In this document: positions 40,914 to 47,691 of the stretch, piece after piece
Layout: each line of letters begins with the position of its first letter
How positions within the stretch are numbered: position 1 is the stretch's first letter
Assembly (NCBI GenBank): GCA_963791045.1
Contig: CAWBQK010000006.1
Coordinates: 64,001 to 128,000 of the forward strand
DNA length: 64,000 bases
Reading direction: 5' to 3'
Source of the DNA: Candidatus Latescibacterota bacterium
GTDB taxonomy: Bacteria > Krumholzibacteriota > Krumholzibacteriia > WVZY01
Notes under the pieces: model-generated
Seen by the model: the letters and a program-made list of their open reading frames with translations, nothing else
The model's database searches: none
What the model was told of the DNA's origin: nothing
Program-made: the position numbers and the translations under genes

Positions 40914-43900
40914 TCACACCCTGACTTGCTGACGCTTTTCTCCGTGCACCAGGTTTAATGTGACCAGAACTCCAAGTTGGCGGTGAATCTTTAAATCATT
41001 TGGTGCCAGTTTTGAGGCATTTCGCAGCATTTTTTCTGCCTGATTGTACTTTTTCAGGTCTTTAAGAACCTTTCCCGCCTGATAATAACCTTCCGCTTCT
41101 TCCGGTTCAATATCGATTGCTTTTTGGATCTGTTCCAGGGCCAGATTGTATTGCCGGCGGTCATGGTGCACACGGCCTAATTCCAGAATAGCCTCGTAGT
41201 TAGGAGTCACAAGTTTCTTCGCTTTATAAAGATGATGAACAGCCTGGTCCAATTGACCAGTATTTCGCAACATCCGGCCAGTTGTGAGATATAGATGGGC
41301 TTTTTGTTCCTTGGTGTGACCAATTTCATCGTTTTGTAAAAAGTCCAGGGCGGTTTTTATTGCCTGATCCATCTCTCCAGCCTCAGCTAAAGTAGTTACC
41401 AAATCCATTACTAAGGGATATTGGTCAGGAAAGTGACTTCCGATTATTCTCAATTCGTCAATTGCTGCCTGAGGGCCATCGATATACTTGATCATAGATG
41501 CACGCTGGAGTTTCAGTTCCAGAGATTCCTCATCAAGAGAGATAGCTTTGTCGATCACCCGCATAGCTTCTTCGCTTTGTTTTTGAGCAGTCAATGTTCG
41601 GGCAAAGAGTGCTAATAATTCAGTGTCGTGGGGTTCCTGTCCCATGAGAGTTACCAGATGTTTTTCAGATTCCCGGTAATTGCCATTTTCGAAGGTTAGT
41701 AATGCTGCAGTTTTTCTGGCTTCTTTGTGCTCTGGCGCCAGGGAAAGGGCTTCGTTGATGCTGGCCAATGCTTCCGGCATACGATGTAATTCTCTTTTTG
41801 CAAGGGCTCGCTGGATCCAGCTTTCAACATATTCAGGATTCAATGAAAGGGCAGTATCTATCGATTTCACAGCCGTTACTCCTTGCTTGGCAGTTAATTG
41901 ATGTTTACTAAGCGCAAGGTAATGACCGACGTATTCGGGTTCAAGTTTAATTGCCTTCTCATAATATGCAACACTTTGTTCGTAAGATTGAGCCATTTCT
42001 GCTGCCATCGCGTACCAGCGGGGTTCGGAATCCCAGATCTGAAGGGCTTTTTCCATCGATTCTTCAGCTGTCAGCAAGTCGTCAACAGCACTCGCAGTCA
42101 GTGCTTGCAGAACAAAATAGAGAGGAAGTTGAGTCTGGCGGGCCCGTTTAGCTCCTTCAAGAGCGGAGGCTGAGGCTTTGAAAGCTTGACTGGGTTTGCT
42201 TTTGATCAGGGCCAGAGCGATCTGAGCATCCAGGACAGGATCTTCCCCGAGTACATTGATGTGATCCAGAGCTGTCTGGGATGCAAATACCTTTTGGCGG
42301 CTATTGCGATAGGATGCAATCAAAGCTGCTTTTTCTGCGGATGTTGTTGCCAGAGATTGCAGAGCATCAGCTGATTCCTGGGTAGGAGCAAATACTGCGT
42401 TTCCCCTGATTTCCAGTCTATTGAGAATGGATTTTTCAACATCAAGCTCGCGGAGTACCTTCAGGCAGCTCTGGAAGCTTTGATAAACATCCGAGGAGAT
42501 TGAGATCTGGCTGGGAGCATTATGGATGACTTTGAAGCTCTCGAAAAAGAGCCGGTTCTCGGCCAGTAAGACATAACCATAAGCTAATTCATAAATAGCT
42601 CGTTTTTCTAATGGAGAGAGGTCAACGGCATGCTGCAAATGAACAGCTGCATCATCCCAGTGCTGGATCTCAAGGGCAGTTTTGCCTAAAGCGATTTCCA
42701 TCCCTGTGCTGAACATACGCTCCTCAGACGATGTGTTTTTCCAAGCAGTCACTGCTGCATCATATTTTGAACGAGCCTCTTTCAGGCTTCCCTGCCGGTT
42801 TAGAATGCGGGCTTGAAGGGCACTTACTCTGTGGTGCTCAGCGTGTTGAGAAACCAATAAATTACTGATCTCGGCAGCTTTAACCTCTTGGGATTGATCC
42901 AGGGCTAATTCTGCTGCCAGGCAAAGACTGTTGATCTTTTCCTCTGAGATTTTCTCTCCCTGGGGAATTGATCCAACTGTCAGATTGGTAAAAGGTCTAA
43001 AGCTGTTTCTGTCCGAAGTGTTCCACAGGCAAGATCCGCGGCCAGAGCCAGAGCAGCCTCAATTTCTTCAGCTGAACTGCCGTTTTCTTCATATTCAGAA
43101 AGGGCTTCCTGGGCATGATAAAAAGCTTCTTCGGATGCTCCGATTTGACTTTGCACTTTAGCCATCTTTTTGTGGAGAGCTGGTTGTCCTGGTGAAAGGT
43201 CCAGGGCATTTGACAAACTAGCAATCGCAGCCTGGTGGCGATCTCCCTTGATAAGTAGATCTGCTTTTTGGATGCGCCATTCAGGTTCATCAAGTTCTGC
43301 ACTGATAGCCTGGTCCAATAATTCAAGGGCTTTTTGCTGATCATCAAGCATGGCATAACCTGCCGCCTGAAGGGACCAAATTTTTGGCAGCAGGGGGGAC
43401 GGATCAGGATTGGCTTTGCAGATACTGATTGCCTTGTTTAAACTGTTCATTCCAGCTTCCATTTTTCCTAAATGGATCAGGGCATCACCAGCAATAAGAA
43501 GCTCCTCTGGTTGAATATCATCAAAATCTGACAGCATCATAAAAGCTTTACATGCTTCATCTTGATTCCCGGCTGATGATTGGGCTTTTCCAAGCAATAT
43601 ATAAGCTCTGGGATTATCAGGGTTGATACGGATTAATTTCTTTAATGAGGAAAGACCCTGTTCCGGGGAGCCAAGTTCTAATGTAAATGATGCTACCCAG
43701 GAGAGATTATCAGGATCCTGGGGAGCAATTTCAGCAGCTTTCTTAGCTGTTTCAAGTGCATTGGCTGTTAGGTTGGCAGCTTGATATGCTTCTGCAAGGC
43801 TGCGGGTCAGAGTCAAATCAGTGGGATAGCGGTCATGGCCATCTTTAAAAGCAGCGATAGCCGTTTCGGTTTCTCCTAATTTGAGAGCTGCTCTTCCCAA

Positions 43901-46234
43901 ACCGGCACTGATTCTGGGTGACCAGCTTGGGTTTGTCATCAGGTGGCTTTCTCTGGCTTTTTGGAAAGCGAGGACTGAGTTTTTATAATCACCGCTGGCT
44001 GCCTGGGCATCTCCCAGTAATACCTGAGCAATTTCGTTTTCCGGTTCAATGGAAAGCGCTTTGCTGAGAGCCGCAGTAGCAGCCTGGGGATCCCTGCCGA
44101 CCTGGATCAGTGAATCCGCATAAGAAAGGAAGGCATCTGCGCTGTCAGGGTCCTGATCAACAACCTGGATCAAATAAGGCAGCGCTTCCTGGGGATTCTT
44201 TGCGTTCAGGAGGAGTTTTCCGTAAAGTAAATTCGCTTCAAAATTGGCAGGAAAACGATCATTGATCTCTTTCAGAATAGTCAGGGCCTGATCATGATGA
44301 CCCAGGGTATAGTATGATTTTCCGATCCCTAATTGGACATCATATCTAGATCTTTGATCAATTTCTTCAGATTCAGCAGCGGCAAATGATTTTTGGTAAT
44401 GATCCAGCGCCTTAGAATGATTGTTTTCTTCCGTTTCCGTCTTTCCCAGCTGATAATAGATCATGGCCTTAGTACTTGCAGAAGTCAATCCAGAGTTGAG
44501 AGTTCGCCGGGACTGTTTATCAAGGCCGAATAATTTCTGACATTCTGCCAGGGTTAACCAGGAATTTTCTAATTGAGGAGTGAGCTCTACTGCACGGTTC
44601 AAATATGCAAACCCTTCTTCTTCCTCTCCAAGTTCACAGAGAGCTTTTCCTTTTAAAGACAATGCAGAACTGTTCTCTTGATCCTGCGCGAGGACCTGGT
44701 TGGCAGCAGATACTGTTCGGCGATATTGTTTTGCTGAAAAAGCGCAGTTTGCAAAATCTATCAGATCTTTGAGGGGTAATGACGTAAAGAGAGCGGTATC
44801 TTGCTCAATAGCTGTCTGCTGTTTAGTCAGGATCGAGGCACGGACTTCAAGGGCTTCCTGCCAGTTCTCCGCTTCCTCAAGGTATCCCGCCACCTTTCTT
44901 TGCAGTACAAGGTCTTTTGGGAAAAGAATCGTCAGGATCTGAGCTGCTTTAGATGCATCTAAGTAATTCCCCAGGGATCTCAACGCTTCTATATAATTCA
45001 AATGCGAAACCAGGTGATTTGGATATTTTTCTAGATAGTGTTTGGCAGCCTGGGCGCTCTCGCGGAATAGACCTGCCTTCAGGAGAATTGAGCTGAGGTG
45101 TTCTTGGGGCTCGGTAATGGACAAGTTTAATGCTTGCAAGGCTAATTGTTCAGCCCGGATAGGTTGATTTTGTTCTAAAGCAAAATCAGACAGGGTAATA
45201 AGTAAAGCAGGATGTTCGGGCAACGGATCGGGCAGTTTTTCAATTAAGTCTCCGATGGCTGCATATTGTTTGTTTAGCAGTAAGGAATGGATGATGTCGG
45301 CAACTTCTGAGAGTTTTTCTTCAGATATATCCTCTTTTCCAAGGGAACCTTTTAAGTCTTTCCAAGCCTGATCACTCACCCTGGATTCATCCAGGTGGGT
45401 TTTGACTTTTGTAAGGTTAGCAGTTACCTTACCCTGCAGTTTTTGATTTTGCTCAGCGGCTTTCTCCAACAGTTTTAATGCTTTGCCATCATTGCCTGCC
45501 AGCTGATTTAAGAATGATAGTATCAATACTTCCTGTATGCTGCCGCTTGCAAGATCCAGACTTGATAAGAGAGCCTGGGCAACCTTTCCAACCAGATCAG
45601 GAACTTCTTTTTGGATCACTTTAAACCATTTTTCCAGGTTTCCTATCTCCAGGTTGACCACGACTTCGACCAGAAGATCTACCAAGCATTCAGGTGAAGA
45701 AGGATTTGAGAGCAGAACTTGCAGGGCAAGATCTGGATGGAGAAAACGAAGAAAATCCGCAGGGTTGTTCACCAGGTTGAATAAAATGGTAAGAGGTGTC
45801 TCCCATTCAATCCTTCCCTTATACTGGTTCAGAATCTCAGGCCAGTTTTTGCCAGCTCCTTTTTCTCCCAGTAAGGCCAGTGCTAACAAAAAACTCTTTT
45901 TCAGATCTGGGGATTCGCCCTCATGCTCTTCAAATTCCTGATAAGTTTGGTGTACTATTCCCTTTATTTCAGCCGGTATGTTTTCAAAGGAATCGATCGG
46001 GTAAGGGATCTCTTCATCTATACTTCTCGCGAAGAGAACAGCACCTATCCGGCCCGGAGTCCAAGATTGAGGTTCCACTCCGATATCCTGGATGAGCTTT
46101 TGAGAAAATTCAGGGTTGTCGAACTCAGCCCAGATGGTGGGATTGCGCCTTAAAGCTGAAATCGCCCAGGACCATGAGTCTTCAGGAAAAATGCTTTTCA
46201 GTGTTTTGAGTCGTTGAAGCTCCAGTTGTTCCAT
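40914..46234 (-). CDS. Giant TPR protein (~1,770 aa); one 1-nt deletion near 42985 joins ORFs 42980-46303 and 40914-42857
   Basis: Many TPR units (e.g. KAIDIEPEEAEGYYQAG). The gap reads NLTVGSIPQGEKISEEKINSLCLAAELALD in frame with the downstream ORF. Confidence 0.88.
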
Positions 46235-46244
46235 TGCCTGTCCG

Positions 46245-46580
46245 TTAGTTAATGCCGATATAGAGGGTGAGGACGATACCAAAGACCATAAAGATGGATC
46301 CACTGATGATCAAGAAAACCCCAATGCCTTTAGTGGTCTGGATTAGGTTTGTGGTCGCTGCCATTAAATTTGAGGCATTGTCGACCAGGCCCGATAGATC
46401 ATCCGCAATTCCTTTTTGAACCATTTGGACGATTGATTTACTGATCGCGCTGGTATCCCTGCCGATCGAGCGGATGATCAGGATGGCAACACCGATTGCA
46501 AAGGTGATCAAACCGATCAGGAATAAACCTGATGCCATAGCAGATAAAACGCGAGCAATTTCAAAAACAGTCATAGTCAT
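46245..46580 (-). CDS. Small protein with two TM helices flanking an amphipathic segment
   Basis: 111 aa, AAAGGAG RBS, ends 10 nt before the TPR gene start. Confidence 0.85.
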   Translation of the reverse strand: MTMTVFEIARVLSAMASGLFLIGLITFAIGVAILIIRSIGRDTSAISKSIVQMVQKGIADDLSGLVDNASNLMAATTNLIQTTKGIGVFLIISGSIFMVFGIVLTLYIGIN

Positions 46581-46762: not shown

Positions 46763-46791
46763 TTGACGAATTTTAGTCAGCAAGTTACAAT
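46763..46791 (+). promoter_or_regulatory. Sigma-70 promoter for rplY
   Basis: TTGACG-N17-TACAAT. Confidence 0.8.
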
Positions 46792-46889
46792 CTCCCCGGC
46801 TAAAAATATCGTCACCGACATGTGGCGGTCTTTTTTTGTGGACCGCGTTTGGAAGATGGTATGCTATAGCTGGTAATCATTACTCTATA

Positions 46890-46932
46890 GAAGCGAAGGT
46901 AACTGCCCATTGTGGGGGGTGAGAGGCGCTTC
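46890..46932 (+). ncRNA. Candidate bL25 ribosomal leader (5S rRNA loop E mimic)
   Basis: GAAGCG-AAGGUA-ACUGCCCA-UUG-UGGGGGGU-GAGAGG-CGCUUC hairpin immediately before the rplY start. Confidence 0.7.
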
Positions 46933-46936
46933 GAGG

Positions 46937-47644
46937 ATGGAAGAAATGGAAAAGTATATATTAGATGCAGAGAAACGAGAAGTAATCGGCAAAAAAGTTA
47001 AAGCCCTTCGCCGTGAAGGTAAACTCCCCGCAGTCATTTACGGCCAGGAGATCGAAACCATGGCAATCACTTTAGAGACCAGGCAGGTTCAACAGGTCTT
47101 AAAAGTTGTTGGTGCCAACACATTGATCAGCGTTAAACTTGGCAAGGAAGAATATCTGGCTCTGGTTCGAGACATTCAGCGCGAAGTGATCATGCGTGAT
47201 CTGCTTCATATGGATTTTCAGGCTGTATCACTCGAAGAAACTATCACCACCACAGTGCCAGTGGTTATGGTTGGTGTGGCACCGGTGATAGAAGAATTTG
47301 AAGCTTTGCTGATCTTAAGTATGGATGAACTGCAGATCGAAGCAAAAGCGAAAGACCTGCCGGATACAATATCTGTGGATGTCTCTGGAATGATGGAAGT
47401 AGGAGACAACATCCAGGTAAAAGATCTTGTAATCTCAGGTGATGTAACAGTCCTCGATGATCCGGATGAAGTAGTGGTTGTTGCAACCGTTCCAACCTTG
47501 ATGGAAGAGATCGTTGACGAGGTAGAAGAAGGTGCAGAACTCTTTGAGGAACTCACCGACGCCGAGTTGATGGAAGGTGAAGAAGGCGAAGAAGTTGGAG
47601 CAGAATGCAGCAGCAGCAGAAGAAGAAGAGTAAACTGTAAGTAG
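46937..47644 (+). CDS. rplY: 50S ribosomal protein bL25/Ctc (acidic tail frameshifted near 47605)
   Basis: REVIGKKVKALRREGKLPAVIYG, LLHMDFQAV, LPDTISVDVS. Confidence 0.95.
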   Translation: MEEMEKYILDAEKREVIGKKVKALRREGKLPAVIYGQEIETMAITLETRQVQQVLKVVGANTLISVKLGKEEYLALVRDIQREVIMRDLLHMDFQAVSLEETITTTVPVVMVGVAPVIEEFEALLILSMDELQIEAKAKDLPDTISVDVSGMMEVGDNIQVKDLVISGDVTVLDDPDEVVVVATVPTLMEEIVDEVEEGAELFEELTDAELMEGEEGEEVGAECSSSRRRRVNCK

Positions 47645-47652
47645 TAAAGAAC

Positions 47653-47691
47653 AACCATCCCGATAGGATATATCCTGTCGGGATGGTTTTT
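47653..47691 (+). terminator. Intrinsic terminator after rplY
   Basis: AACCATCCCGATAGGA-TATA-TCCTGTCGGGATGGTTTTT. Confidence 0.88.

Follow-up and report, generated by a model that had tools for sequence, protein, structure and literature searches.

The window, the whole stretch of 64,000 nt analysed here, carries on its forward strand the gene rplY, and just 5′ of that gene lies a hairpin (46890-46932, forward strand). The rplY product contains the Pfam domains PF01386 (1.2e-20) and PF14693 (2.3e-17) and matches the bL25 chains of solved ribosomes as well as the TL5-5S complex 1feu; judged by these matches, it is a bL25 with a 5S-binding N-domain. Upstream of rplY, on the opposite strand, are a 111-aa membrane-like ORF (46245-46580) and a 1107-aa repeat-rich protein that looks TPR-like by eye (42980-46303). 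The features of the rplY leader and gene are:

46763..46791, forward strand: promoter-like sequence (TTGACG, 17 nt, TACAAT), from a consensus scan that by itself is not enriched over shuffles
46808..46839, forward strand: terminator-like hairpin (8-bp stem, 6-nt loop, then C and U7), an optional second leader element
46890..46895, forward strand: lower stem, 5′ strand GAAGCG, from folds and from pair changes across 99 distinct sequences
46895..46901, forward strand: 5′ side of the loop-E-like loop, GAAGGUA, corresponding to 72-78 of 5S rRNA
46896..46901 opposite 46921..46926, forward strand: internal loop, AAGGUA opposite GAGAGG, read from the window sequence
46902..46920, forward strand: upper stem-loop, the helix IV equivalent, with the first A-U and C-G pairs kept and the remainder variable in both sequence and length
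46921..46927, forward strand: 3′ side of the loop-E-like loop, GAGAGGC, corresponding to 98-104 of 5S rRNA
46927..46932, forward strand: lower stem, 3′ strand CGCUUC, from the fold, covariation counts and RNAalifold
46933..46940, forward strand: Shine-Dalgarno region GAGGAUGG, directly 3′ of the lower stem and GAGGAAGG-like in the family consensus
46946..47644, forward strand: rplY, two-domain (CTC/TL5-type) bL25 of 232 aa when read from the conserved ATG, assigned with Pfam
47653..47688, forward strand: intrinsic terminator of rplY, a stem of 16 bp with a T run behind it

Fold, start codon and origin of the rplY leader

The minimum-free-energy fold of 46886-46940 is the hairpin as described above (-19.5 kcal/mol, z = -3.66), and 1 out of 200 shuffles folds as well. 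For the entire 151-nt leader the folding z is -2.91. The original prediction had GAAGC (46890-94) and GCUUC (46928-32) closing GAAGGUA opposite GAGAGGC, with a cap above them; the letters of the window agree exactly with that description, and the fold gives the same structure. A sixth lower-stem pair, G46895-C46927, lies beyond the two strands named there. The cap is an imperfect short stem in which ACUGCCCA (46902-09) faces UGGGGGGU (46913-20) across a UUG loop.

The start of translation had to be revised. It had been placed in a GAGG-ATG context at 46937, and the loop string GAGAGG had been taken for a ribosome-binding site buried in the hairpin; both assignments are wrong. The ATG at 46937, beside GAGG, is not kept and reads ACG or AAG in three out of six close relatives. 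When six close relatives whose proteins are 69-88% identical are aligned, the conserved rplY start proves to be the ATG at 46946. The Shine-Dalgarno sequence is the strong GAGGAUGG at 46933-40, which is unpaired in the folds and is taken in by no alternative pairing. Across the family, 0-2 nt separate the lower stem from the GAGGAAGG-like Shine-Dalgarno sequence, which in turn lies 5-9 nt from the AUG.

Further upstream, both promoter-like hexamers are invariant across all 7 close relatives. The terminator-like hairpin at 46808-46839 begins ~10 nt past the predicted transcription start, and in 6 of the 7 close relatives its stem is invariant and its loop variable. The additional hairpins proposed for the leader, GCGGUC..GACCGC and CUAUAG..CUAUAG, are present in the window, although neither is kept beyond the closest relatives. 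The string GAUGGUA at 46854-60 was considered as a second mimic of loop E and rejected, as it is not kept in close relatives. At 46856-46876 there is a tiny upstream ORF (MVCYSW and a stop codon). In an alignment read by eye, the six closest relatives have 5-6 codons at this place ending in F/Y-S/N-stop, one close relative having an in-frame 3-nt indel. Neither L005 nor the more distant members showed the ORF, and its conservation may merely reflect close kinship.

The window has a GC content of ~45% and lies within a segment of ~125 kb (contig C6, about 10-135 kb; the window is C6:64001-128000), whereas the remaining contig and the genome outside this segment have 55-57% GC. The assembly has a second L25 gene at C7:89890-90567 (L044), set within a spoVG-prs-rplY-pth arrangement. 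Compared with the L25 of a genome from the same family, the C7 copy is 60% identical and the window copy 31%. Because of the GC contrast and the presence of a second, native-like L25, the segment is probably foreign to the assembly. It probably comes from another organism, of the lineage of those relatives whose MAGs are labelled Anaerolineales, and was probably brought in by a chimeric join or by mis-binning; a very large transfer is less likely. We therefore took the 5S rRNA genes of the relatives as the reference and dropped the assembly's own 5S rRNA, given a 45% GC segment in a 56% GC genome that has a second, native L25. No RNA sequencing run is listed as containing the stretch, and the DNA runs listed for it contain small shares only.

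Distribution and covariation of the hairpin

A covariance model built from seven close sequences (R1) matched 96 out of 151 genomes of one Anaerolineales-type order of Chloroflexota, the order of G203, at a cut-off of E up to 0.01. There is one match per genome, with the exception of a spurious, Shine-Dalgarno-like second match in G201. Of four inspected genomes of the order that R1 did not match, three also have the motif and one (G218) does not, so the true share of the order is greater than 96/151. The hairpin is kept in more than 100 Anaerolineales-type genomes. When 151 genomes sampled across the whole phylum were searched with a second model built from 100 sequences (R2), 14 were matched, 13 of them from the Anaerolineales-type order; the fourteenth match, in G413, is on a different contig from the L25 gene of that genome and is spurious. 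R1 was also run on 150 genomes of the class to which the source assembly is assigned, where it gave weak matches only, none of them convincing. The best of these falls inside a 577-aa ORF and was rejected.

We aligned 100 copies of the hairpin, comprising that of the window, those of three further close relatives and one match from each of the 96 genomes. Each of the 100 is immediately followed by an L25 (rplY/ctc-type) ORF (protein identity 33-100%). In many genomes rplY follows a same-strand ORF after a short spacer, and the hairpin is the sole conserved element of this spacer. Of the 100 family members, 88 are picked up by a simple motif scan, which finds the motif in none of 38 outgroup L25 upstream regions (six loci from other phyla, 30 from the class of the source assembly, G413 and G218). 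The same scan gave 0 out of 30 and 0 out of 20 in two sets of Bacteroidota L25 upstream regions. In 12 of the 100 leaders (e.g., L101, L105, L091, L129, L147, L164 and L170) we also observed a small conserved hairpin, CCGG-YGGANN-CCGG, which precedes the loop-E-like hairpin by 10-25 nt and is absent from the window.

Among the 99 distinct sequences of the alignment, standard pairs occupy 97.7% of the pair cells, compared with 81.7% in shuffles and with 34-51% when the partners are slid by 1-3 columns. Compensatory changes on both sides are found in 11 of the 13 pairs, including 5 of the 6 pairs of the lower stem, in an alignment that was fitted to the covariance model. The columns of the lower stem are, however, kept in register by invariant neighbours, and the same two helices are predicted independently by RNAalifold. 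Across the family the upper stem-loop may be as short as a few nucleotides or as long as about 50 nt, and in all rows of the alignment the upper stem begins directly after the internal loop, just as helix IV starts right behind A78/G98 in loop E. Thus, of the checks proposed together with the original prediction, conservation of the element upstream of L25 genes and covariation of its stems turned out in its favour, as did the comparison with described families.

A hairpin followed by a U run, corresponding to that at 46808-46839 in the window, is present in 38 of the 100 family leaders, as opposed to 5-18 in shuffles. In 21 leaders it comes after a promoter-like site; the pattern TTGAC..TAnAAT itself is found upstream in 40 of the 100 members. 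The stems of the U-run hairpins vary by lineage (CGUCACC/GGUGGCG, CGUCUCC/GGAGGCG and GCGCCUCC/GGAGGCGC). The hairpin at 46808-46839 might act as an attenuator or be a structural element of the 5′ end. Both its frequency relative to shuffles and the change of stem sequence between lineages are in line with a mainly transcriptional control of rplY through this promoter-proximal, terminator-like structure, the loop-E-like hairpin then being accessory or acting on the processing or stability of read-through transcripts. However, the U-run hairpin is missing in most members, and many of those without it have a short spacer and yet keep the loop-E-like hairpin. Moreover, the U-run hairpin is located upstream, and therefore binding at the loop-E-like hairpin could not control it co-transcriptionally. 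We consider mainly transcriptional control to be quite improbable.

Likeness to loop E of 5S rRNA

The internal loop is near-invariant across the family (GA-R-GGUA opposite GAGAGGC), in contrast to the stems, which vary. With the number of sequences out of 99 given after each letter, the 5′ strand reads G99, A99, N (A55 G38 U4 C2), G99, G99, U96, A98, and the 3′ strand G92, A95, G99, A99, G99, G98, C99. Of the 30 5S genes parsed from the order, 29 have the loop E sequence GAUGGUA / GAGAGU(A/U), in agreement with the GAUGGUA / GAGAGUA on which the prediction of a mimic was based. The position numbers 72-104 used here are, we assume, those of E. coli 5S rRNA.

The leader has the same letter as loop E of the same genomes at positions 72, 73, 75-78 and 98-102, or 11 out of 14 (binomial probability of 11 or more matches, 4e-5). 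The copy takes in all four loop E pairs adjacent to helix IV, which bears out the identity first noticed between the GGUA/GAGA cores, and 80/96 remains a Y-G pair. The leader differs from 5S rRNA in having R for U at 74, G for U at 103 and C for A at 104. Due to the last of these, 72-104 is a Watson-Crick G-C pair; the other two distal pairs, 73/103 and 74/102, become purine-purine. The likeness to 5S rRNA is confined to the loop, and a search of nine 5S loci with R1 and R2 gave no match at E up to 10. At the level of the letters, the proposed rRNA mimicry is thus only partial: it extends to the four pairs adjoining helix IV and not to the three distal pairs, which are replaced, and it is not accompanied by a cross-match of the leader models to 5S genes.

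The pairs of bacterial loop E are non-canonical (sheared A-G, reverse-Hoogsteen U-A, G-G and G-A). L25 presumably contacts the minor groove of loop E and the adjoining helix IV. Like this L25/TL5/CTC site, seen in 1feu, the leader has a symmetric purine-rich loop between two helices. It differs from the site in having an A-U pair at 79-97 where 5S rRNA has C-G, and its lower helix and sequence context are unrelated to 5S rRNA.

Apart from protein, bacterial loop E binds divalent metal ions. The leader loop might accordingly be imagined to sense a small ligand or a metal ion, for example Mg2+, and to act on rplY translation in the manner of a riboswitch, an explanation to which only the invariance of the loop lends itself. 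Set against it are the lack of a match to any Rfam riboswitch, the very small size of the element (about 43 nt, one hairpin), its exclusive association with rplY and the lack of an alternative pairing with the Shine-Dalgarno sequence. We regard ligand or ion sensing as very improbable indeed, the least likely of the explanations considered.

Both RNAs were available from 64 genomes of the order. Leader and 5S loop are both canonical in 55 of these and both variant in seven, and two genomes are discordant. One of the two (G212) combines a canonical 5S rRNA with a variant leader; the other (G298) has a variant 5S rRNA, on a short contig that looks foreign, and a canonical leader. The seven genomes in which both are variant form one clade (99% support in a quick L25 tree) and belong to one family, that of G278. 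We sampled this family fully (21 genomes, 14 of them with both RNAs). Its 5S rRNA is variant in 13 of the 14, which combine A at 100 with C, U or A at 76, and its leader is non-canonical in 13 of the 14, G622 and G623 being discordant. In the deviant leaders, 77/99 and 78/98 are often covarying Watson-Crick pairs (U-A, A-U, G-C, C-G). The nucleotides that change are therefore not the same in the two RNAs: 77, 78, 98 and 99 in the leader versus 76 and 100 in 5S rRNA. GA-R-GG / GAGGC is constant in every member, including the deviant family. Counted by gene, 15 of the 16 5S genes of the G278 family (L270-L274, L333-L348) depart from the usual loop E, some of them with A98.

The protein of this clade has changed as well. 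All eight of its bL25 sequences depart from the other 91 at three positions of the N-domain, where those 91 show 89-100% conservation; the altered residues adjoin an RNA-binding arginine. At the positions that align with the universally conserved residues (R, R, Y, H and D), nothing has changed. The joint deviation of 5S rRNA, leader and bL25 fits one protein reading both RNAs, as seen in a single lineage only.

Conservation and covariation show that there is selection on the structure of the hairpin, and they do not identify its ligand. It could be a structural element of rplY mRNA that is independent of bL25, for instance a 5′ stabiliser against RNase, a standby structure, an enhancer of translation or a site for some other protein, with its loop a recurrent RNA module. 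Such a role would suit the unpaired Shine-Dalgarno sequence, as well as the fact that the universally kept part comprises only GA-R-GG / GAGGC, half of it like loop E. However, all 100 copies of the hairpin are associated with rplY, with a single copy per genome, and invariant internal-loop nucleotides are typical of a specific ligand site. In addition, 11 of the 14 loop positions agree with the rRNA binding site of the very protein encoded downstream, and the loop deviates in the family where 5S rRNA and bL25 deviate. We therefore think a bL25-independent role unlikely, though clearly less far-fetched than transcriptional control or ion sensing.

Proposed mode of action and relation to known leaders

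The hairpin is a conserved 5′-UTR structure that precedes an r-protein gene and adjoins its ribosome-binding site, as is characteristic of r-leaders. We consider it probable that it is the operator of a new autoregulatory leader for two-domain bL25, based on partial rRNA mimicry and belonging to the Anaerolineales-type order. We infer binding by bL25, repression and the mechanism of repression from sequence comparison, the likeness to the rRNA site being the sole indication of binding. In this autoregulatory scheme, bL25 present in excess of free 5S rRNA would bind the hairpin at its purine-rich loop and at the foot of the upper stem, and the bL25-bound hairpin would block or trap the 30S subunit, so that translation of rplY would be repressed. 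With 0-2 nt between the lower stem and the Shine-Dalgarno sequence, a protein bound there would be placed to do either. Since the Shine-Dalgarno sequence is unpaired, a steric mechanism, with bL25 on the hairpin excluding or trapping the 30S subunit, is the most likely one. The strength of the Shine-Dalgarno sequence argues against simple competition, and would be compatible with entrapment or another mode.

If this is correct, the long bL25, which is the form of most bacteria, gains a leader with a readable copy of loop E. Feedback control of 5S rRNA-binding proteins would also extend to the deep-branching and mostly uncultured Chloroflexota, and leader and 5S rRNA would provide a compact natural RNA pair for studying how bL25 recognizes non-canonical RNA. 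More tentatively, and with somewhat less confidence than doubt, we suggest that this is the first autoregulatory operator for a two-domain bL25 and that it co-evolves with the protein and with the imitated rRNA site. Were this so, its natural variation would map the minimal recognition element of bL25, the GA-R-GG / GAGGC core. The alignment of ~100 sequences suffices to seed a new Rfam family for annotating Chloroflexota genomes.

The original prediction held that no leader of this form had been described, and we found none. With Rfam 15 at gathering thresholds, the whole window yields two tRNAs only, and the leader has no family match at E up to 10. The literature that we searched contained no L25 leader for Chloroflexota, for long bL25 or with mimicry of loop E. 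L25 autorepression via a 5′-UTR hairpin is established in E. coli (PMC4408793, PMC10931766), and Aseev, Bylinkina & Boni (2015) describe it for four gammaproteobacterial families (PMC4408793). By their account, the enterobacterial rplY leader is confined to species with a short, one-domain L25, and its operator hairpin HII does not resemble loop E (PMC4408793). Section 3.8 of a 2024 review likewise calls its features inherent only to species with short bL25, and states that in E. coli the competition by the repressor needs the weak Shine-Dalgarno sequence GAGA (PMC10931766). Eckert & Weinberg (2020) also recovered an rplY (L25) leader; their main text names the L25 r-leader for Enterobacteria only, and the word "Chloroflexi" does not appear in that main text (PMC7247131).

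The leader described here shares with the enterobacterial one its location in the rplY 5′ UTR and a conserved hairpin right before the ribosome-binding site. A GAGA(G) string, which is important in the enterobacterial leader, is found here too. In contrast to the short L25 and weak GAGA of that system, the present one has a two-domain bL25, a strong Shine-Dalgarno sequence and a copy of loop E. The architecture also differs from the enterobacterial HI/HII operator, in line with the lack of an Rfam match, although that leader may not be in Rfam. The likeness to the enterobacterial rplY leader is thus one of way of working and not of family membership.

Leaders that mimic rRNA sites are known for L4/S10, S15 and L20 (PMC4408793; surveyed in PMC7247131). 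Their ligands and RNA structures differ from those of the hairpin upstream of rplY, but the logic would be the same, namely that a free r-protein binds a look-alike of its rRNA site in the mRNA, near the ribosome-binding site.
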